Shown here: positions 54,382 through 64,000 of the stretch, in pieces
Numbering within the stretch: position 1 is the first letter of the stretch
Layout: every line of letters starts with the position of its first letter
IMG/VR virus record: IMGVR_UViG_3300009448_000011
Coordinates: 1-64,000 of that record
Source of the DNA: a virus
DNA length: 64,000 nucleotides
Reading direction: 5' to 3' (one strand)
Translations under genes and position numbers: made by a program
The notes under the pieces: model-generated
Told to the model about the DNA's origin: nothing
The model's input: the letters and a program-made list of their open reading frames with translations, nothing else
Databases searched by the model: none

Positions 54382-55178
54382 AAAGTTTCTTTTAAACCCA
54401 TTACATTATTATAATTTGTAACAACCAATTTTTTAATTAAGATCATATCTTGATTCCAATGCCAAGTAGGAGAGCCCACAATAACAGGTTTAATAGGTTT
54501 AGTAGATTGAACAGAGAGTTTACCTTTTAGATTTAGGCTACTAGAAGAAATGTCCATAGCAGTATAGCGAGAGATGTCGAGAGGATTAAAAGTAATTAAA
54601 GTAGGGTGAGTAGAATTATAAGTAAAGACGGTACGACGACTAGAATAGAGTTTTTGATTGGGATGTAATAATTTAGCAGCTTCAGTGCCACAAAGTAAAA
54701 TAGGGCAAGTAGGATTATATTTAGAAATAACATTTATTTCTTTTTCGAGCCATTTTATTTTACAAGAGCGAATATAGTGATCTTTAATATCAACTTTATC
54801 GCCTCTAGAATCAAAAGGACTGCATTTAAGTATATTAGTAAAAGCAATTTTATCATAGAAAGGTTTTAAAGTTTGTGGAAAATGAACATCCCAATCAAAA
54901 TGAAAGATAGTAGAATATTGAAAAAAGCGGCCGGCATTAGGCTTATCTATAGATTCTGTTTTAAGATTAGGAGCAAAACTAAAACCCTTTTTAAGTTCTT
55001 CTCGAGAAGGAAAAGGAGCAATAATAATTAAATTAACATTAGAAAGGCCGCCAAAAGTATGACCACCGATTGCGGAGCCACAAGAAAGAGCACAATTATT
55101 ACAATTAGAATCAAAATCTGGTAATAGTCTATAAACTCTTTTAGAAGGAGGAGAAGAAGGCAAGTGACCTTTAAGCAT
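54378..55178 (-). CDS. Uracil-DNA glycosylase family 4-like protein
   Basis: CNNCAL, P.REE, AGRFF, TNILKC.P, C..KWLEKEI, ILLCG..A, TFNP. Confidence 0.75.
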   Translation of the reverse strand: MLKGHLPSSPPSKRVYRLLPDFDSNCNNCALSCGSAIGGHTFGGLSNVNLIIIAPFPSREELKKGFSFAPNLKTESIDKPNAGRFFQYSTIFHFDWDVHFPQTLKPFYDKIAFTNILKCSPFDSRGDKVDIKDHYIRSCKIKWLEKEINVISKYNPTCPILLCGTEAAKLLHPNQKLYSSRRTVFTYNSTHPTLITFNPLDISRYTAMDISSSSLNLKGKLSVQSTKPIKPVIVGSPTWHWNQDMILIKKLVVTNYNNVMGLKETL

Positions 55179-55189
55179 AAATAATAGAA

Positions 55190-55579
55190 TCAGACATATT
55201 GTTTAAAAACAGAGGAATTTACTTCAAACAAATCAATAAAAGAAGTTTGTAAGACAACTAAATTAGCAATAGGAAAAAGAGGGTCAAGAGTAAGAGGTTG
55301 TGTAGATAGCAAAGAGAGAGACAAAGAAGTAGATTGTTTAGGGGCAACAACTTGACAAGAATCGACAATAGAACAAAGAGGTAAAAGAGGTAAAAGAGTA
55401 TATAACAAAGTAATAGGGGATTCACTATAAAGAAGAACGCCTAAATCTAAAGTAGTAATTAAATTTGGAGATAAAGTAAGAGAAAAAGGAGAATAGACTT
55501 TATAGCCAGTAGGCAGACAAAATTCTAACTGACTATTATGGCTAGAAATTGTTTTAGTAAAAATTATTTTATTTATCAT
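55190..55579 (-). CDS. Degenerate dUTPase-like protein (likely start 55579, MINKII)
   Basis: dUTPase-like pattern (YSP...L.P.....LDLG, PIANLVV) but lacking the canonical SG/DxDYxG motifs; the upstream extension to 55795 overlaps the HNH gene. Confidence 0.4.
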   Translation of the reverse strand: MINKIIFTKTISSHNSQLEFCLPTGYKVYSPFSLTLSPNLITTLDLGVLLYSESPITLLYTLLPLLPLCSIVDSCQVVAPKQSTSLSLSLLSTQPLTLDPLFPIANLVVLQTSFIDLFEVNSSVFKQYV

Positions 55580-55592
55580 AGTTGTAAAAGAA

Positions 55593-56195
55593 TCACAAAA
55601 ATTTAAGAGACATATTAAAAATAAGTTTGGATTGTTGAAAAGGAAGATTAAGCAACAATTCTTTAAACAAATCGGCCCCAAAGTTTTGACTAGTGGCCTT
55701 AATAGATCTGATGAGAAGTTCACAAAAGTTCCCAACGCCAAACAAATTAACGCGATCAATATCAAATTTAACTTCTGCGTTATGGTAGTAGGCACTAGTA
55801 GAACAGCAAACAGAAGTAATATCAGCGATAACTTTGTTATTTGTGGGGGTAGTATACCAAAGATTGGAAATATGATTATCAGAAGGATTGTGATTTAAGT
55901 GATGAACTTCCACAGAACCTTTCAAAATCTTATGACCAAAATAGAGTTTTTTCCAACCTTTCCAGACATATAGAACTACTTGATGCATGCCCACAATTTG
56001 TTTTTTCTTGTTTGAGGCATGTAGTTTAAAGAAACAAGCATTTTTCAACAATTTAAACAAGGCTGGATTTTGGGTTTGAGTTAAAAACTTATAGCCATTT
56101 TTGTTAACAAAAAACCTAGCAGAAGGCAACAAAGTTTTAATTTTCTCTAATTTAACTTTGAGACTTTTTATACTTTGATTGTTAAATTGTTCCAT
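55593..56195 (-). CDS. Free-standing HNH endonuclease
   Basis: MHQVV...VEVHHLNHNPSDNHISNL...NN. Confidence 0.8.
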   Translation of the reverse strand: MEQFNNQSIKSLKVKLEKIKTLLPSARFFVNKNGYKFLTQTQNPALFKLLKNACFFKLHASNKKKQIVGMHQVVLYVWKGWKKLYFGHKILKGSVEVHHLNHNPSDNHISNLWYTTPTNNKVIADITSVCCSTSAYYHNAEVKFDIDRVNLFGVGNFCELLIRSIKATSQNFGADLFKELLLNLPFQQSKLIFNMSLKFL

Positions 56196-56240
56196 GATTT
56201 TTTATTATTTTTATTATTTTAATTATTTTAATTAAAAAAT

Positions 56241-56272
56241 AAAAGCAATCAGAAATAGATCTAATTGCTTTT
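56241..56272 (-). terminator. Intrinsic terminator-like hairpin upstream of the HNH gene
   Basis: AAAAGCAAT...ATTGCTTTT stem followed by a T-rich run on - strand. Confidence 0.45.
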
Positions 56273-56487
56273 AAAGTAGTATTAAGTGCGCCTTTAACTG
56301 TATTTTAATAATTCGGATAGTCACAGTAAAACTATCTATGCTTTCCTACTGCACAACCATTTAAACAAAACTTTTAAAAAAAGTAAAATCTAAGGGGCTC
56401 TGGACTAGGTGATGGGTGCCTATCCCTTCTGATGATTAAAGTCGAGTCTTCTAGACAGATATTTAATTTTAAGGTAACAAGTAAAGG

Positions 56488-56539
56488 CTAAGATTAATAT
56501 CTATACTCCTAATCAGGACAATATAGATATTAATCTTAG
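56488..56539. repeat. Perfect 18-bp inverted repeat
   Basis: CTAAGATTAATATCTATA-16 nt-TATAGATATTAATCTTAG. Confidence 0.9.
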
Positions 56540-56567
56540 AAATATTATAACATAAAATTACTTAAAA

Positions 56568-57740
56568 TTAACAATTAGCCTCATAAATAATAACATCACT
56601 AGAGACGTCATCTTGTTTATGAGAACACAAATGAATAACTTTAATAGGAGTTGAGTTTTTAACATCAATTTTTTTAATATTAATTTGAACAGTATCAAGA
56701 GGAAGAATTTTATGTTTAGGGCCACCCATAGCGCGAAGAGCTTTAATAATATGGCCAACAGAAAGATTAATTTTCTCAAAAATACCTTGAGTAGAAACTT
56801 TCAAAGAAGAAGGAATAATAATATTACTTTTACTACTATCAATTTTAATATGAAATTGGGAGAGTTCGAGATCAACTTCAAAGTTAATAATATTAGTTTC
56901 AGTAGAATCATAACTTTGCCATTTAATACTTTCAGTAATATCTTCATATTCGACTTGAATAAAGGAATTACAAGGTTGAGAAATAATAGTATCAACTTTA
57001 AGAACAATATTATTAGGAGAATTATCAACTATAAAACACATTTCGCCTTCATTAGAATAAAACTTAAGAGAGTTAAGAGAAGAGCTAAAAGAAAGCATTA
57101 CCTGATCGCCGAGGAGAGGAATAATACGAAGAAGAGCGGGTCTAATAGCGCCTTTAAAATGGCCAGTACTATTAGTAGAAGTAATAGATTTATAGCGAAT
57201 ATAGCTAGTTTCAGTAAATTGAACATACATAAAGATAGTAGAAGAATTAGTAGTAACAAATATTTCTCTATCATTATAAGAATTAGCACAAGCAATAGGA
57301 ATCAAGTCCAAGAAATAAGAAAGAGAGGGACAAATATCGACATAAGAAAGAGGATCAAATAATTTATCAGAAAGAAGACTATCTTGACTAAAATATTGAT
57401 TATCAACAATAGAGCCAAAAGGTTTCATTTCATAATGTAAAAGATTATTATTACTAGAGATTTCCAAGCCATATTTAGGATTAAGCTTAGCAGTCATTGC
57501 TTTTAATTTATTAGAGAGAACAATTTGGCGACCTTCTTCAACAATATCAACTAAAAGTTTCAATTTAACAGAATGACTAGTCAAATCAACAGTAGTAATT
57601 TCGAGAGTCCCTTCCGCTTTATTTGTTTTTAACTCAATACATTGTTCCACACTATTAAGTTGTTTTCTTATACTAGGAATCGAGCAAATAGCATTAATGA
57701 TTTTTTTATAATCAGCTATATTTTCTATTCTAACTTTCAT
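56568..57740 (-). CDS. Sliding clamp, DNA pol III beta-like
   Basis: 390 aa; N-terminal pattern (CIELK....TLEITTVDL...V...DIVEEG) typical of beta clamps; DnaX-like loader nearby. Confidence 0.6.
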   Translation of the reverse strand: MKVRIENIADYKKIINAICSIPSIRKQLNSVEQCIELKTNKAEGTLEITTVDLTSHSVKLKLLVDIVEEGRQIVLSNKLKAMTAKLNPKYGLEISSNNNLLHYEMKPFGSIVDNQYFSQDSLLSDKLFDPLSYVDICPSLSYFLDLIPIACANSYNDREIFVTTNSSTIFMYVQFTETSYIRYKSITSTNSTGHFKGAIRPALLRIIPLLGDQVMLSFSSSLNSLKFYSNEGEMCFIVDNSPNNIVLKVDTIISQPCNSFIQVEYEDITESIKWQSYDSTETNIINFEVDLELSQFHIKIDSSKSNIIIPSSLKVSTQGIFEKINLSVGHIIKALRAMGGPKHKILPLDTVQINIKKIDVKNSTPIKVIHLCSHKQDDVSSDVIIYEANC

Positions 57741-57780
57741 AATATTATTTATATTCTTTATTATTAATAATCAATTACAT

Positions 57781-57810
57781 TTGACATACTAAGTTATGGT
57801 ATGTTATACT
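57781..57810 (+). promoter_or_regulatory. Sigma70-type promoter of the free-standing cassette
   Basis: TTGACA-18 nt-TATACT with extended TG. Confidence 0.7.
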
Positions 57811-57834
57811 TTAAAAAAGGAAAAAGAGAATAGA

Positions 57835-58419
57835 ATGAATTTAGAAACTTGTCAAAACTTAAGCTTGATAATAGAAAAAGACCAAACAATTGAAGTAATT
57901 GAAATTTGGGCAAAAGTATTATATATAAGAAGAAGCAAAGGAAGAAATTCATTTTATTCGAAGAAAGGAATAACAAAAGAAACAGAAGGAATATTTTGTA
58001 ATAACTTAAAAGTTTCAGAAAATTATAAAAGCCTTTTTAAAAAATACCACCCCGATTTAAACAAAGGAAAAGAAAGTTATGTTGACATTTCAAAAAACAT
58101 TAATAGATGGAAAAACTTATTACTTGAGAGTGGACAAAGAGAGTTTGATCAACAATTATATACAGAGCTTATTGAGTTTTGTGGACCACTCACATCCATT
58201 TTCACTATTGGAACCAGAGCAAGTTTTATCGCAAAACAAACGTGCGGATCTATCAACATCCCTCAATTTAGTTCTGAACAGGAATTTGTTGAGTGGAAAG
58301 CAGCGCCAAAGCAAGTTGCTTCCAGGCAAGCGTTCCTTGATAGCCAACTTACTAGAGCTCAAATCATCAAAAAGTACGGTAAATCCTACTATGATTATGA
58401 AAGAGATCTTCCTTTTTAA
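57835..58419 (+). CDS. HPD/J-domain-like protein, cassette copy 1 (ORF1)
   Basis: Start MNLETCQ aligns with paralog MDIQTAA; YKSLFKKYHPDLN; ends ERDLPF. Confidence 0.7.
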   Translation: MNLETCQNLSLIIEKDQTIEVIEIWAKVLYIRRSKGRNSFYSKKGITKETEGIFCNNLKVSENYKSLFKKYHPDLNKGKESYVDISKNINRWKNLLLESGQREFDQQLYTELIEFCGPLTSIFTIGTRASFIAKQTCGSINIPQFSSEQEFVEWKAAPKQVASRQAFLDSQLTRAQIIKKYGKSYYDYERDLPF

Positions 58420-58825
58420 TCCTGACCAGGACACTATAATACGTCCTTACGGATTAGAAAAAAATCAAATGTATAGTAATTATATGCCAACGGGCAAAGA
58501 AAGCAAAAATTATTTAAGGAGTTACATTAATAAAGCAGAATCTTTAGGGATCAAAGTCAAAGCTTTCAATTTTAACATTTGCGGTCCTGTTGTCACACAA
58601 GAAGCTATTGAATTCGCCAATTACATGAATATTGCAATTAAAGAATTAAATGGAGTGAAAATACAAATCAATGTATTCACTTTGGAACAATTAATCAAAG
58701 AATTAATGACAAATATAAATGGAAACAAATGGTTCATCACTTCGCAAGTTCCAAGTATATGCTGGGGAAAAGATCAGGTACAATATTTAATTTCAGAAAA
58801 AAAAGCTATATTAACAGAAAGTTAA
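58079..58825 (+). CDS. PD-(D/E)XK nuclease-like protein, cassette copy 1 (ORF2), overlapping ORF1 by 341 nt
   Basis: E..I..YI, KRADLS, LLELKS; ATG preceded by AAGGA; homologous over its full length to 62545..63276. Confidence 0.65.
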   Translation: MLTFQKTLIDGKTYYLRVDKESLINNYIQSLLSFVDHSHPFSLLEPEQVLSQNKRADLSTSLNLVLNRNLLSGKQRQSKLLPGKRSLIANLLELKSSKSTVNPTMIMKEIFLFNPDQDTIIRPYGLEKNQMYSNYMPTGKESKNYLRSYINKAESLGIKVKAFNFNICGPVVTQEAIEFANYMNIAIKELNGVKIQINVFTLEQLIKELMTNINGNKWFITSQVPSICWGKDQVQYLISEKKAILTES

Positions 58826-58909
58826 CGTTCTGATTCATCTATTCCTTCAGACTTATCAATTTTATTCATTTCGCCCCAAAGACCATCTAAATTTTCTTCA
58901 TCAGAACCC

Positions 58910-59383
58910 TCATTGTTCTGATGATTCTTTTTTTTTCTCAACCTTACTAAAGTCTTCAGTTACAGTATTAAAAATTTTAATAATAGCTTGTTTTTCTTGT
59001 AGAAACTTCATTAAGGCACTTGTTAGTGAAGTATTACATTCACTAACAACATGCATAGAATATTCAAGATAAAGATCATCAGGGTTCAAAGAACTAAGAG
59101 AAAGAATACCTTCAAGACCAGGCTGAACACTCATAATAATATTAATCAAAAAATCGGGGCTTATAAAAAGAGGAACTTCTATAGGCAAAACAATACGAAT
59201 TAAATGATTAGATAAAGGATAAATTTGAGAAAAACCGTACGAAGTTTCTCCTTCAATTAACCACCCTTTATCTTCTAAAAATTTAACATTACAAAATTCT
59301 AAATATTGAAATAATATTTTATTATTACGAATAGAAAGCATATATTCGTAAGGATTAAAATTAGGATTAGGAGTAGAAAGCAT
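58910..59383 (-). CDS. Hypothetical protein (may extend to 58822 via an A9 run)
   Basis: 157-aa ORF; the alternative frame after the A9 run encodes an acidic tail ending at 58822. Confidence 0.55.
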   Translation of the reverse strand: MLSTPNPNFNPYEYMLSIRNNKILFQYLEFCNVKFLEDKGWLIEGETSYGFSQIYPLSNHLIRIVLPIEVPLFISPDFLINIIMSVQPGLEGILSLSSLNPDDLYLEYSMHVVSECNTSLTSALMKFLQEKQAIIKIFNTVTEDFSKVEKKKESSEQ

Positions 59384-59406
59384 ATATTCGTAAGGATTAA
59401 AATTAG
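59332..59406. repeat. 33-bp direct repeat with 42-bp period at the start of the 58910..59383 gene
   Basis: TAGAAAGCATATATTCGTAAGGATTAAAATTAG occurs twice. Confidence 0.85.
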
Positions 59407-59438
59407 TTTTAAAAAAATTGACTTTTTGTTATTTTGAT

Positions 59439-60993
59439 TTACCTAAAATAGCAGAATGCCCCCATCAGAACGGTACTCCGTTTGGTGGCGGGATGAATGC
59501 GAGTGAGGCGACGATTGCCTGTCCTCCTTCCGAGATCTACCGATTGTCGGGATTGTCGGACAGGCATAAGGAGACGAACAAATTCATTGCTTATTCAATG
59601 TTTTATCTGAGTTTTTCTGGATAAAATTATGCTATCATAGTTTCATGATAGTTAGAGAAGCCAAGCTAAAATACGGTACAGCAGAGCAATATTCTGCCAT
59701 TGATAAAGCCATCCGAACAGCACAGTTCATTCGGAACAAAGCCGTTCGCTATTGGATGGACAATCAAGGTACGAGTAAAGCCGATCTGTACAGTATCTGC
59801 AAAGACTTGGCTAAAGAGTTTGACTTTGCTAAAAAGCTTAACTCCGCTGCTCGTCAGGCTAGTGCTGAACGTGCTTGGGTTGCTATCTCTAGCTTCTACA
59901 CCCGATGCAAAAAGCGGCTCACTCCAGTTGGGTCTCCCAACCATGGAAGTAAGACAAAACAAGGCGTAGGCAAGAAAGGTTTTCCAAAGTTTAAGAAACA
60001 TTGTCGTTCTGTTGAGTATAAGGTTTCAGGATGGAAACTATCGAAAGATTGCAAATCGATCGCATTCACTGATGGTTTTGAGATTGGAACATTATCGATA
60101 TTTTGCAACAATGAAACTCAAGAAGACTTGCATAGGCTGAAAATTAATCGTGTGCGGATCGTGCGGAGAGCAGACGGGTATTATGCCCAATTCTGTTTTG
60201 ATGCAGATCGTAAAGAGCAAGGGGAATATTCAGGCAATGTTGTCGGATTGGATTTAGGGTTGAAGTTTTTCACCAAAGACCAAAACGATAATGCTGTAAT
60301 ATATCCACAGTTCTTGAGAAAGGCCCAGATGCAACTCAAGAAAACTCAACGTCGATTAAGCAAGAAATTTGTGAAGGGTGCCAAACCCCAATCAAACAAC
60401 TACCACAAGGCGCAAAAACAACTAGGAAGAATTCATCTCAAAATTCAACGCCAGCGAAAAGATTGGGCGATAAAAGCCGCCCGAAACGTAGTGATATCTA
60501 ACGATGTCGTGGTGTATGAAAATTTGAAGATTGCGAACATGGTCAAAAATCATCATTTGGCTAAGTCAATTTCCGATGCTGGTTGGTATCAATACACTCA
60601 ATGGCTGGACTACTATGGCAAGATTTGGGATAAAGCAGTTGTGGCAGTATCGCCAAACTATACGTCTCAAGATTGCTCTAATTGCGGTCATCGAGTGAAA
60701 AAGTCTCTTAGTACCAGAACGCACTCATGCCCCAACTGCAAAATTGAAATTTGTCGCGATACGAATGCGGCTTTGAATATCTTGCACAAGGGATTGAACA
60801 TTCTTGGTGTTGAGTGGGACAAAAACAGTACTTCTGGGCAAGAAGGATCTGCCTCTGAGAATGAGGGAAAGCGCGGGGAGAGATGTACCTCTACAGTCGA
60901 TGAGTAATTAAAGACTGCAAGTAATTCTCTGTGAACCGCGAATAAGAATCCCCCGCTATATCGGTACTTCGATTAGCGGCGGGAGTATGTCAA
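59439..60993 (+). mobile_element. IS200/IS605-family (IS1341-like, TnpB-only) element
   Basis: Higher GC than flanks; follows TTGAT (59434-59438); left-end hairpin at about 59454-59500; right-end hairpin ending ...GGGAGTATGTCAA; no tnpA. Confidence 0.8.
59645..60907 (+). CDS. tnpB: TnpB RNA-guided endonuclease
   Basis: GLDLG (RuvC-I), VYENL (RuvC-II), TSQDCSNCG..CPNC Zn finger, RDTNAALN (RuvC-III) all intact. Confidence 0.95.
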   Translation: MIVREAKLKYGTAEQYSAIDKAIRTAQFIRNKAVRYWMDNQGTSKADLYSICKDLAKEFDFAKKLNSAARQASAERAWVAISSFYTRCKKRLTPVGSPNHGSKTKQGVGKKGFPKFKKHCRSVEYKVSGWKLSKDCKSIAFTDGFEIGTLSIFCNNETQEDLHRLKINRVRIVRRADGYYAQFCFDADRKEQGEYSGNVVGLDLGLKFFTKDQNDNAVIYPQFLRKAQMQLKKTQRRLSKKFVKGAKPQSNNYHKAQKQLGRIHLKIQRQRKDWAIKAARNVVISNDVVVYENLKIANMVKNHHLAKSISDAGWYQYTQWLDYYGKIWDKAVVAVSPNYTSQDCSNCGHRVKKSLSTRTHSCPNCKIEICRDTNAALNILHKGLNILGVEWDKNSTSGQEGSASENEGKRGERCTSTVDE

Positions 60994-61036
60994 AAAAAGT
61001 CAATGAAAAAAGTAAAAAAATTAATAGTTAAAAAAA

Positions 61037-61459
61037 TTAATAGTTAAAAATATCTATAGTTGTATTATTGTTAGTTCGTTTAAAGATATAACTATTATTT
61101 TGATAGAGGGTGTATTCTTTTAATTGAATACCAGGAGTGATCAAGTCATAATCAAAAGCAACAATAGCATAGCCAGTGCCATCATTAATAGTCCAGGTTA
61201 TATAGAACTTACTTTTCAAATATTGATCATAGCTAGTATCCATGTCGTAGTAGATACCGTAGGGGGTAGTATTTTCCAGGTAAATTTGGCTAGAAGAAGT
61301 AGCACAATAATTCGATTCTGTCAAACCCAACCACATATTATCGGGAGAACAAGTATTTTGAGAATTTGGCTCGGTTAATTGAAGTTCTGCAGAGGCAGAA
61401 GAACCGCTGATCAAAATACTTAAAATAACTACAATGCCGATTTTCAAATTATTAAACAT
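61037..61459 (-). CDS. Secreted/exported hypothetical protein
   Basis: N-terminal signal peptide MFNNLKIGIVVILSILISGSSASA. Confidence 0.6.
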   Translation of the reverse strand: MFNNLKIGIVVILSILISGSSASAELQLTEPNSQNTCSPDNMWLGLTESNYCATSSSQIYLENTTPYGIYYDMDTSYDQYLKSKFYITWTINDGTGYAIVAFDYDLITPGIQLKEYTLYQNNSYIFKRTNNNTTIDIFNY

Positions 61460-61587
61460 TATTTTTTTTATAGTAAATAGTGAATATTAAATAAATTACA
61501 TATTTTCAATTAAAGCAGCAAAATGTCCTCCTTCGGACTAGTATTCCAGTTAAAGGAGGGTAAGGAAGTAATGTTAACAATTTTTTT

Positions 61588-62190
61588 TCATTTAGCGGCC
61601 CAACTAGTACCCAATTTACATTCTGCTTTAGAAGGAAAATCAGGCACTAATTTATGTAATAATTCATCCATTGCTTTTTTCATTCCTAATTCTTGTGCAG
61701 CAGCATATTCATAAGAAATATCTTGAAATTTATATTCAGGAATATAAACTTCCCCATCTTTTCTTACATTTACTACTTCACCTTGTCCAGGGATATAAGT
61801 AATACATTCATCATGAACTAAGCCTACGATATAGCCTGGAGAAGAATGTTGTTTATACTTAGTATTAAGCTGAGTAAAAAACTGATCGATATAATGTGCG
61901 GCGCGTTTTGTCATAATACTAGAAAGGCCTTGTATAATGGTATTACAACCTTTACGCATAGTAGCGCCATCATTTTCTATTCCGTGAGCATTACCTTCGC
62001 CAACGAAATAGCGTCTATTTGTTATAGGACATTGTACCCATTTTTGATATCTAGCCAAAGAACTAGTATTATCAATATAGACTTGCAATTCTGGAAATAA
62101 ATTAAAATAGTTTTTAAGAAGTTGTTCAGCAACCTTAATATCTATTTGAAGAGCGGTAGAAATTCTATTAGCACTTCCACCATAAATTAC
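61588..62190 (-). CDS. polA: Family A DNA polymerase, last exon
   Basis: VIYGGSA (end of motif B), YFNLFPEL, RRYF, NTIIQG, VHDEC (motif C), GTSW. Confidence 0.9.
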   Translation of the reverse strand, partial: VIYGGSANRISTALQIDIKVAEQLLKNYFNLFPELQVYIDNTSSLARYQKWVQCPITNRRYFVGEGNAHGIENDGATMRKGCNTIIQGLSSIMTKRAAHYIDQFFTQLNTKYKQHSSPGYIVGLVHDECITYIPGQGEVVNVRKDGEVYIPEYKFQDISYEYAAAQELGMKKAMDELLHKLVPDFPSKAECKLGTSWAAK

Positions 62191-62243
62191 CTTAAACCCT
62201 AAATTTTCATCTAGGTTTGGACTATACCTTTTAATGTAATTAT

Positions 62244-62273
62244 TTGACATACATTAAAACACCGTGTTATAAT
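62244..62273 (+). promoter_or_regulatory. Consensus sigma70 promoter antisense to the intron
   Basis: TTGACA-18 nt-TATAAT with extended TG; overlaps intron P8 and P3'. Confidence 0.8.
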
Positions 62274-62300
62274 TAGTATAACAAAGAAACATTTTAGATA

Positions 62301-62879
62301 ATGGACATACAAACAGCGGCGAATTTACAAGAATTAATAGAACAAGATCCTTTAATAGAATTAATCGAAATATGGGATAAAGTTTTATACATAAGAAAAG
62401 TAAAAGGCCGAGGAAGGTTTCATACTAAAAAAAATATTACTTTGTTAAAAAGTGGAATATACATCAATACAAAATATATACTCCAAGAATACAAAAGACT
62501 TCAAAAAAAATATCACCCTGATTTAAACAAAGGAAAAAAAAATTATGTTGAAATTTCAAAAAGCATTAATCAATGGAAAGACTTATTATTTGAATGTGAC
62601 GAAAGAGAACTCAATAGAACAGTATATCAGTTACTTATTACAACATGTGGACCGCTCACATCCATTTTCAGCATTGGAAAATCAGCAGACTTTATTTGGG
62701 GGCAAGAGGCCGGATTTCTCCACATCCCTAGATTTAATTCTGAACAGGAATTCAAGGAATGGAAAATTCCCTTTAGGAATTGGGCGGAAAAACTCGATGA
62801 TTGCCGATTGCCTAGAAGTAAAAGGAAGTTCTCAGATGTTGAGCACTACGGAGTTAATGAAAGAGATCTTCCTTTTTGA
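62301..62879 (+). CDS. HPD/J-domain-like protein, intron-borne cassette copy 2 (ORF1)
   Basis: IEIWDKVLYIRK, YKRLQKKYHPDLN, ends ERDLPF; paralog of 57835..58419. Confidence 0.7.
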   Translation: MDIQTAANLQELIEQDPLIELIEIWDKVLYIRKVKGRGRFHTKKNITLLKSGIYINTKYILQEYKRLQKKYHPDLNKGKKNYVEISKSINQWKDLLFECDERELNRTVYQLLITTCGPLTSIFSIGKSADFIWGQEAGFLHIPRFNSEQEFKEWKIPFRNWAEKLDDCRLPRSKRKFSDVEHYGVNERDLPF

Positions 62880-63276
62880 TGCAGCAGAAACTATTGTTCC
62901 TACTTATGATGTTTCTATGTCTGATTTTCAATCTCAATATTTTCCATTGGGGAAAGAAAGCAAGAATTATTTCAGAAGTTATGTGCAGGAAGCACTTAAT
63001 AGAGGCATCAAAGTGAAATCATTTACTTTTTGGTTTGCGGGCCCTCTAGTGTCTATTGAAGCCATCAAATTTTCTATTTATTGGAATCGCGTGATCAAAC
63101 AAATAGGTGGAATTCAAGTAGAAATCAAAGTTTTGTCTTTGGAACAATTAATTAATTACATCATTTCCAATATTCCAACAAAAAAATGGTATGTATTAAA
63201 TCAACATCCTTCTGTTTGTATGAGTAGAGCGCAGGTTGAAGCTCTAATAGAAGCTCAACTAGCCATTTTAGTATAA
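62545..63276 (+). CDS. PD-(D/E)XK nuclease-like protein, intron-borne cassette copy 2 (ORF2), candidate homing endonuclease
   Basis: ENSIEQYI, KRPDFS, CLEVKG; overlaps ORF1 by 335 nt. Confidence 0.65.
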   Translation: MLKFQKALINGKTYYLNVTKENSIEQYISYLLQHVDRSHPFSALENQQTLFGGKRPDFSTSLDLILNRNSRNGKFPLGIGRKNSMIADCLEVKGSSQMLSTTELMKEIFLFDAAETIVPTYDVSMSDFQSQYFPLGKESKNYFRSYVQEALNRGIKVKSFTFWFAGPLVSIEAIKFSIYWNRVIKQIGGIQVEIKVLSLEQLINYIISNIPTKKWYVLNQHPSVCMSRAQVEALIEAQLAILV

Positions 63277-63303
63277 TCTTTTAATATCTAATTATCTTTA
63301 AGT

Positions 63304-63336
63304 CGCCTTGTACATTAATGTATTTAGGCGTTTTTT
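63304..63336 (+). terminator. Intrinsic terminator of the antisense cassette
   Basis: CGCCT-TGTACATTAATGTATTT-AGGCG followed by TTTTTT, about 27 nt after the ORF2 stop. Confidence 0.7.
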
Positions 63337-63474
63337 ATTATGTATTCTTAAAAGTCTCTGAACCATTTTATAAACTTTCATTTATAGCTGGCTGCTGATT
63401 GACATATAGTATTTTTTAAACTACTTAGTGTTCCAGCAATTGAGTGTTTTTTACTTCACCATAATTTACAATTT

Positions 63475-63738
63475 AGTGAAGCCGCAGACTTTACCACGGT
63501 CTCTTCTTGTCCATCCATTCATATCTTTTTTAGCTTCTTTAATAACATTCCATTTAGGAACAGTAGCTAATTCAGGGTACATTCCAATAGCCGAAACTAC
63601 ATGAAGATCCCCGTCAGGATTAGGATATGTTTCTTTTGTATGTGGATTAATAAGAAAGGGATTATGCACTTCGGCATCGAAAAACGCATTAATCATTCTC
63701 TCTATTTTTGCTATACAAGCAATAGCTCTTACTTCTTG
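63475..63738 (-). CDS. polA: Family A DNA polymerase, internal exon (88 aa)
   Basis: QEVRAIA (end of motif A), GDLH, RDRGKVCGFT (start of motif B). Confidence 0.88.
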
Positions 63739-64000
63739 CAATATAGTTTTATTCTATACTGGCACTACTCTTCACCATCTCTATTAAGTACAGGTGTTTT
63801 ACGTCAGTGCTCTACTCTTGCCCAATTAATATAATAGAATAATAGTTCTAATTAATTTGCTAGATCGGGATTAGTTTACTATCACTTTCCCCGAATTGGT
63901 AAAATATTTTTTATACTATTTCTAATATAAACGACCCTTTTTTATTGTATTTATTTGTTTGACATTCAGCCATATAAGAGATACAATAAAAAAAAGACAA
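63739..64000 (-). mobile_element. Second group I intron in DNA polymerase motif A (3' part; 5' end outside the window)
   Basis: P AAUUCGGGGAA (63887-63897), Q AAUCCCGAUC (63863-63872), R GUAGAGCACUG (about 63804-63815), P3 UUUUAC/GUAAAA, P8 CACC/GGUG, S AAGAGUAGUGCC (63761-63772), P9 hairpin, terminal G before CAA GAA GTA AGA. Confidence 0.8.
63959..63987 (+). promoter_or_regulatory. Sigma70-type promoter antisense to the second intron
   Basis: TTGACA-17 nt-TACAAT inside a long intron hairpin, pointing out of the window. Confidence 0.55.

Follow-up and report, generated by a model that had tools for sequence, protein, structure and literature searches.

A free-standing member of a putative selfish nuclease cassette family in a viral contig, with paralogues in group I introns

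Positions 57,781 to 58,825 of a 64,000-nucleotide (nt) stretch of viral DNA (the window) hold two overlapping open reading frames, ORF1 and ORF2, behind a promoter of their own. The window is the first 64 kb of a viral contig of 105,687 bp (IMG/VR record IMGVR_UViG_3300009448_000011; completeness estimate, 62%), and a related pair of frames lies within an intron of the nearby DNA polymerase gene polA. The locus raises the question of whether the pair (cassette A) is a mobile unit that occurs both free and embedded in introns, as the original prediction proposed, or a working gene pair of the phage. We consider it reasonably probable that cassette A belongs to a small family of selfish nuclease cassettes of the homing-endonuclease type, each of them self-contained, and that it is a free-standing representative of that family.

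A two-gene cassette in four copies

A search of the whole contig with ORF2 gave four paralogous cassettes (A to D), not the two noticed originally. All four were on the plus strand within blocks of minus-strand genes. Cassette A was free and the other three were embedded in introns, so that the cassette does exist in both of the states proposed for it. The two pairs that had been likened to each other were indeed homologous: the frames at 62301–63276 in cassette B matched those of A with 49% identity in ORF2 (E 6e-70) and 51% in ORF1. The presence of four paralogues in four different contexts supported the interpretation of the cassette as a selfish unit.

Homology among the copies, which were 35–50% identical to one another, started at the -35 hexamer and ended at the stop codon of ORF2. 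The flanks (100 nt upstream and 200 nt downstream) showed no significant similarity in any pair; a single marginal value (p ~0.04) arose among twelve comparisons. Bounds of this kind, set by the cassette's own promoter and the ORF2 stop, are what a self-contained module would be expected to show. No sequence was common to the four reconstructed empty sites.

The promoters of A and B followed the shared, 18-nt-spaced design that had been described for them. The strings TTGACATAC...TGTTATACT at 57781 and TTGACATAC...TGTTATAAT at 62244 were the only ones to match this design anywhere in the window, where 0.06 matches were expected. In a consensus scan promoter A scored 11/12 and promoter B 12/12, both with the 18-nt spacer and a TG-extended -10 element. 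Eight sites in the contig (both strands) reached at least 11/12 of the sigma70 consensus, and four of these were the four cassette promoters.

One ATG, at 57796, fell within promoter A, and another, at 57835, followed a GGA-rich ribosome-binding site. ORF1_A therefore likely starts at the latter (194 amino acids, aa). Downstream of ORF2_A, the hairpin and U-run of an intrinsic-terminator-like element overlapped the last codons (3' end) of the convergent ORF at 58910–59383, and the transcription unit extends to this hairpin. A stable hairpin with a U-rich tail also followed ORF2 in copies B, C and D. These hairpins were analogous, not homologous in sequence.

The two frames overlapped by 335–404 nt in all four copies, with both frames open and ORF2 always in the +1 frame. 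Synonymous codons were randomised with one protein fixed and the codon usage of the genome kept. In seven of eight tests none of 3000 trials left the other frame open; the eighth gave 2 of 3000. The overlap is far beyond chance. It contained the whole catalytic core of ORF2, and within it the ORF2 frame was 41–56% conserved versus 28–48% for the ORF1 frame. The best conserved part of the unit was the non-overlapping N-terminus of ORF1 (46–73%). Many of the 18 ORF2 clusters described below were about 140 aa long, with gene calls beginning after the ORF1 stop. This indirectly suggested that the overlap is present in other genomes too.

The A-run that precedes ORF2 in copies A and B might suggest a programmed frameshift, but this reading was rejected, as copies C and D lack the run and in them ORF2 opens from its own upstream ATG. 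A separate feature was noted at the other end of the overlap. ORF1 ended with CCY TTT TRA in all copies (58408–58419 in A, 62868–62879 in B, and the equivalents in C and D), and the +1 frame there is ORF2; a +1 slip at the ORF1 stop would append the C-terminal half of ORF2 to ORF1. Dual coding could equally account for the conserved string, since it encodes LPF* in one frame and (F/V)(L/P)F in the other.

ORF2 is probably a PD-(D/E)xK nuclease. We make this call with moderate confidence, because of its invariant E, D and ExK residues and of fold matches dominated by this superfamily. Residues E21, D57, E93 and K95 were invariant in the seven full-length homologues (29–49% identity), in the contexts KRPDFS and hhExK. 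In an AlphaFold2 (AF2) model of ORF2_A (predicted local distance difference test, pLDDT, 66; predicted template modelling score, pTM, 0.65), D57 opened the strand of residues 57–60, and E93 lay in the strand of residues 86–94 with K95 just after it.

The VIA structural search of this model against representatives returned AF1548, N.BspD6I, FokI, EcoT38I, the small subunit of R.BspD6I, NucS and Can2, with Z of 5.6–6.5. PD-(D/E)xK nucleases made up all seven of the top matches and most of the top 30 (Z 4.2–6.5), the tool itself calling Z of 5–6.5 a common and possibly non-specific range. Language-model neighbours of ORF2 included Mrr_cat clusters (0.85), a weak lead only. The endonuclease named originally was thus plausible from the signature and the fold matches, but had no match to a curated family profile.

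ORF1 resembled a J-domain protein. The residues Y71-H72-P73-D74, with the HPD tripeptide, were invariant in all six ORF1 sequences. Five of the six gave a sub-threshold match to the Pfam DnaJ profile PF00226 (22–24 bits versus 27.8) over profile positions 15–59 of 63, corresponding to helices II–III; a full four-helix J-domain above the gathering threshold was not found in ORF1. The AF2 model of ORF1 (pLDDT 44) was unusable.

Free-standing and intron-borne contexts

Copy A was confirmed to lie between genes and not within an intron. A small-range relaxed Rfam scan (E up to 10) gave no Intron_gpI in either flank of A, and a comparable scan detected the intron cores at B (25.6 bits) and D (16 bits). 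The non-coding DNA around A amounts to 40 nt before the start codon of a beta-clamp-like gene on one side and 84 nt before the end of the convergent ORF on the other, and is too short for a ribozyme core. The flanks had no similarity to the intron parts next to B, C and D, and no pair of reading frames could be joined across the site. The original remark that no intron core surrounds A was borne out by these results, and the cryptic flanking core that it had named as an objection did not appear.

The other three copies were carried by introns in polA and in an AAA ATPase gene. Removal of intron B joined GKVCGFT to VIYGGSANRIS and restored PolA motif B, and removal of intron C joined GISDYSA to QEVRAIA and restored PolA motif A. 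Removal of intron D joined DELSAAEPRLQASA to YELILDRKI, just after the Walker B motif of an AAA ATPase. In all three cases the upstream exon ended with U, the intervening sequence ended with G, and an in-frame stop was present 0–3 codons past the upstream exon. The spliced products were collinear with intact homologues, with no gaps at the junctions. PolA motif A, PolA motif B and the position after Walker B are classic homing sites. A different split of motif A, AVISID/TILQEVR, was rejected, as no U/G splice pair fits it; the actual splice is DYSA/QEVR.

The ribozyme cores differed in the strength of their signals. Intron B matched Rfam Intron_gpI with 25.6 bits (E 2.4e-4 in a 731-nt scan) at 63353–63438 on the minus strand, from P4-P6 to J6/7. 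Intron D gave a weak group I match in P4-P6/J6-7 (16 bits), and intron C only a td-like, P4-P6-like sequence motif at 63865–63895 on the minus strand. The cores of B and D surfaced only in small-range relaxed scans; Rfam gave no intron at the gathering threshold over the whole window, nor at E up to 1 for 55000–64000 or for two loci.

The P4-P6 region of intron D (contig 81324–81400, minus strand) was 78–81% identical over 55–69 nt, by blastn, to regions of Enterococcus and Staphylococcus phages. In the Staphylococcus phage the matching region separates the two parts of a split DNA polymerase gene and adjoins a gene annotated as an 'intron-associated endonuclease'; in the Enterococcus phage it is found immediately upstream of a 'homing endonuclease' gene. 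From these matches, the core type of intron D seems to be widely shared.

The cassette was 3' of P4-P6 in intron B and 5' of P4-P6 in introns C and D. The ribozymes were therefore entered at different positions, which implies that insertion happened more than once. In all three introns the cassette was antisense to the ribozyme. We found no description in the literature of a cassette on the strand opposite to the ribozyme for phage introns.

Two further features of these polymerase genes were noted. PolA is encoded by two genes, as in Ma-LMM01 (gp180/gp178), over contig positions 61588–66860. The exonuclease/thumb gene is at 65571–66860, and the second gene, which starts at 65147, carries two group I introns; a DUF4326 gene (65210–65551) lies between the two. 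In addition, the -35 box of cassette B (TTGACAT, 62244–62250) is the reverse complement of the ATG that opens a 220-aa frame (61588–62250) spanning the last 57 nt of the intron and then the last PolA exon. Translation of unspliced RNA from this frame would yield a C-terminal PolA fragment.

Family history and competing interpretations

The family was rare. An exhaustive profile search with ORF2 of 1.84 billion representative proteins gave 18 clusters, four of which were the contig's own copies. Five ORF2 homologues (P0001, P0008, P0010, P0012 and P0013) and the ORF1 homologue P0021 were listed on an ENA contig or contigs of 282,341 bp. The five ORF2 members, having the same listed length and source, were taken as one contig; if this presumption is right, the multi-copy habit of the cassette is common to at least one larger relative.

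A phylogeny of free and intron-borne copies, which the original prediction had proposed as a check, was built from the C-terminal halves of ORF2. In this tree A and B each paired with a protein from another phage: A with P0001 of the 282,341-bp ENA contig (support 82/88), and B with P0009 (80/74). C fell in a clade with P0002, P0010, P0012 and P0016 (99/97), and D grouped loosely with P0003, P0008, P0013 and P0014. Copies from different genomes thus interleaved. ORF1_A was 76% and 64% identical to proteins of other assemblies (P0020, and P0021 with PF00226 among its precomputed domains) versus 51% to ORF1_B.

With their nearest relatives in other phage contigs, the four lineages appear older than the split between these phages. 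Both the free and the intron-borne lineages look old, with moderate support for the pairings of A and of B. The 'snapshot' of an endonuclease invading an intron, suggested originally, was not supported, since A and B are only 49–51% identical and have their nearest relatives in other phage contigs; A is no fresh copy of B. A and B together formed a weakly supported group, by which the cassette would have switched at least once between free and intron-borne existence, in either direction.

In our preferred interpretation, each selfish cassette would combine two overlapping genes, the J-domain-like ORF1 and ORF2 (probably a PD-(D/E)xK endonuclease), with a host-type sigma70 promoter ahead of them and a terminator hairpin behind. 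It would have settled in at least two kinds of safe site, namely the peripheral positions of three group I introns, in antisense, and an intergenic gap in the replication module. The unit would be transcribed early by the host RNA polymerase, and ORF2 would cut near the insertion point in a co-infecting relative whose allele lacks the cassette. Recombinational repair would then copy the cassette in, A by intronless homing and B to D with the intron carried along. The terminator and the antisense orientation would spare the minus-strand replication genes from disturbance. ORF1 might assist or control the nuclease, possibly via the host DnaK. Mobility, cleavage, homing and the part played by ORF1 are all deduced here from sequence.

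Several points weighed against this interpretation. The nuclease call on which it depends was moderately supported: besides the possibly non-specific VIA scores, ORF2 had no relevant match in Pfam (E up to 10), NCBIfam or PHROGs, its profile matched no chain sequence in the PDB at E up to 10, Foldseek found nothing in the PDB for the ORF2 model at E up to 0.001, and no DNA-recognition domain was identified in ORF2. The role given to ORF1 is an assumption. The divergence of the copies would make any movement within this genome ancient. Neither a cassette-less allele nor a polymorphism was seen, as no DNA of relatives was found by megablast or tblastn (phages), in IMG/VR (with ORF2, ORF1, clamp and PolA as queries), in JGI metagenomes or in GTDB genomes. 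Strong consensus promoters are unusual for homing endonuclease genes, which usually have low expression, and would also fit a gene of the phage's own.

The main rival, which we consider unlikely, is a domesticated phage gene family. An early nuclease and a co-chaperone recruiting DnaK would serve, for example, host DNA degradation, recombination or anti-defence, with A as the working gene and the intron copies as secondary captures or decaying duplicates. Besides the host-type promoters, the open frames and catalytic residues kept in all four copies would fit such a family, and the conservation of the ORF1 N-terminus suggests selection on protein function. That each lineage is closer to another phage than to its own genome could reflect vertical inheritance. 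However, four diverged copies of one function would be costly in a contig of about 106 kb (estimated 62% complete), and the family is extremely rare. Occupation of the catalytic motifs of essential genes, within self-splicing introns, by three of the four copies is a hallmark of selfish elements, and the varying position of the cassette within the ribozymes argues that it has moved.

An addiction or exclusion module of the toxin-antitoxin type would explain the tight coupling of two overlapping genes with their own promoter and terminator. A toxic ORF2 nuclease would be neutralised or regulated by ORF1, and the module would stabilise itself or exclude competing phages without homing. Multi-copy putative homing endonucleases paired with antitoxin-like partners have been noted in other large aquatic phages (PMC12619734). 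We nevertheless judge this explanation improbable, as a J-domain-like protein is no known type of antitoxin, no Pfam or NCBIfam match (PADLOC was not searched) connects ORF1 or ORF2 with toxin-antitoxin families, and addiction alone would leave the occupancy of intron loops at conserved motifs of essential genes unexplained. That copy A is not truly free, but sits in a degenerate or cryptic intron or in the relic of one whose host gene was lost, is very improbable. Its right neighbour, an ORFan without homologues, is for that reason only a putative gene. Against this, the intact start of the 390-aa clamp-like gene on its left is only 40 nt away from the cassette, the relaxed scan that detected B and D gave no Intron_gpI signal in either flank, and neither the comparison of the flanks with the other introns nor the attempt to join a split gene gave any sign of an intron.

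A more elaborate form of the homing interpretation may also be put forward, as quite an unlikely proposal. The cassette would be an undescribed autonomous two-protein homing system, in which a J-like partner recruits the host Hsp70 to a PD-(D/E)xK nuclease for its activation, its turnover or its release from the cut site. About 340–400 nt would encode both the nuclease core and the tail of the partner. Such a system would colonise intergenic sites and ribozyme loops, always in antisense, and the antisense RNA from its strong promoter could tune the splicing or expression of the invaded replication genes.

The locus and its relation to known systems

The contig has a guanine-plus-cytosine (GC) content of about 25–35%. 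The PolA proteins most similar to its own (about 30%) came from a Microcoleus phage and from Microcystis phage Ma-LMM01 and its kin, so that the virus is probably a cyanophage. A synteny comparison with Ma-LMM01 and My-WqHQDG matched only the uracil-DNA glycosylase; these phages are too remote to call an empty site. The features of the locus and of the other copies are collected in Table 1.

Table 1. Features of cassette A, its paralogues and their surroundings (contig and window numbering coincide)
Feature	Position	Strand	Remarks
Cassette A	57781–58825	+	Free-standing
Promoter of cassette A	57781–57810	+	TTGACA, 18-nt spacer, TG, TATACT; 11/12 consensus, TG-extended -10
ORF1_A, J-domain-like (KKYHPDLNKG)	57835–58419	+	194 aa; conserved N-terminal region; C-terminal 113 codons share DNA with ORF2 N-terminus
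Dual-coding overlap	58079–58419	+	341 nt; ORF1 C-terminal half over ORF2 catalytic core
ORF2_A, probable PD-(D/E)xK nuclease	58079–58825	+	248 aa; +1 frame relative to ORF1
Intrinsic-terminator-like hairpin and U-run	58898–58934 (hairpin 58898–58924)	+	10-bp stem, T-run; -12.8 kcal/mol, z -3.7
Left neighbour, beta-clamp-like gene	56568–57740	-	390 aa; start codon 40 nt from cassette A -35 box
Right neighbour, ORFan	58910–59383	-	157 aa; convergent with cassette A
Cassette B	62244–63276	+	Promoter, ORF1 62301–62879, ORF2 62545–63276; nearest paralogue of A within this genome
Group I intron in PolA motif B	62191–63474	-	1,284 nt; cassette B antisense; U at exon end, G at intron end
Cassette C	contig 63959–64987 (ORFs 64015–64987)	+	Within intron 63739–65060
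Promoter of cassette C	63959–64000	+	TTGACA-17-TACAAT; cassette continues past window end
Intron in PolA motif A	contig 63739–65060	-	1,322 nt; carries cassette C antisense
Cassette D	contig 81440–82501 (ORFs 81505–82501)	+	Within AAA ATPase intron
Intron in AAA ATPase, just after Walker B	contig 81195–82626	-	1,432 nt; carries cassette D antisense

As originally described, cassette A opposed the direction of the replication genes, between the clamp gene and a hypothetical gene, both on the minus strand. The sole basis of the 'clamp' label was an atlas search with language-model features, in which the 390-aa protein scored 0.95–0.96 to phage DNA_pol3_beta-type clusters; it had no match in Pfam, PHROGs or NCBIfam. 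The 157-aa ORFan matched only itself among 5.8 billion proteins, and no family in Pfam, PHROGs or NCBIfam.

The neighbourhood of cassette A contains much other selfish DNA. At 55593–56195 on the minus strand, between the clamp-like and uracil-DNA glycosylase genes, lay a free-standing gene for an HNH endonuclease (Pfam HNH_3; phrog_28475), a second gene of the selfish type within the same short stretch. A TnpB gene (OrfB_IS605 / Cas12f-like TNB) was found at 59645–60907. The segment around it (about 59400–61000, 37–42% GC) abuts the start of the 157-aa ORFan and is probably a recently acquired element of the IS200/IS605 type.

Among known systems, a close parallel is in T4-like phages, which carry free-standing seg and mob genes together with the intron-borne I-TevI, I-TevII and I-TevIII, with promoters of their own and in some cases (segD) in antisense to their neighbours (PMC2988022). 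There, as here, one endonuclease family is found both between genes and in group I introns of the same phage, and the free copies occupy intergenic gaps in conserved modules. The T4-like genes encode GIY-YIG or HNH enzymes and use phage middle or late promoters, whereas the present cassette has a putative PD-(D/E)xK enzyme, two genes with a long dual-coding overlap, and a consensus sigma70 promoter. Unlike the I-Tev genes, its intron-borne copies are antisense to the intron.

The model of collaborative or trans homing (T4 mobE/I-TevIII), in which a free endonuclease acts together with an endonuclease-less intron, predicts that free genes can invade introns (PMC2988022). The present contig resembles this arrangement, with introns close to a free endonuclease gene among the replication genes. 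The psbA gene of cyanophage S-PM2 is reportedly another case. Collaborative homing on the polymerase gene, as raised originally, is a conjecture here. No evidence was found that A targets an intron insertion site: the reconstructed empty site of A had no similarity to the PolA exon junctions, and all three introns already carry a cassette of their own.

The homing endonuclease I-Ssp6803I, of the PD-(D/E)xK superfamily, comes from a tRNA group I intron in a cyanobacterium. It shares with ORF2 the proposed catalytic superfamily, the association with group I introns and the cyanobacterial setting. No sequence relationship between the two was detectable in the PDB chain profile search (E up to 10), and ORF2 differs in its larger size, its pairing with ORF1 and its antisense orientation to the intron. 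An endonuclease gene on the strand opposite to the ribozyme, as in our introns, is said to occur in nuclear rDNA group I introns (the Didymium and L2066 introns). Those are eukaryotic His-Cys box genes with Pol II transcription and spliceosomal introns, in contrast to the phage setting, bacterial promoter and two overlapping genes found here.

For ORF1, counterparts are phage J-domain proteins such as RB43 Rki (cited in PMC12619734). Both would be phage-encoded, with an HPD-containing, J-like segment that could engage the host DnaK. Unlike phage J-domain proteins, ORF1 matches DnaJ only at helices II–III and below threshold, its N- and C-terminal parts are new, and its gene overlaps that of a nuclease.

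The putative nuclease family appears to be new, with 18 clusters among 1.84 billion proteins, a two-gene unit, a J-like partner and a long, conserved dual-coding overlap. If cleavage and homing are true, it would add an architecture to those of homing endonucleases, with a possible link to chaperones. An endonuclease family present in one genome as both free and intron-borne copies provides the raw material of the accepted model for how mobile introns originated, and the present cassette would then offer a clean natural comparison of one unit in its free and intron-embedded states.

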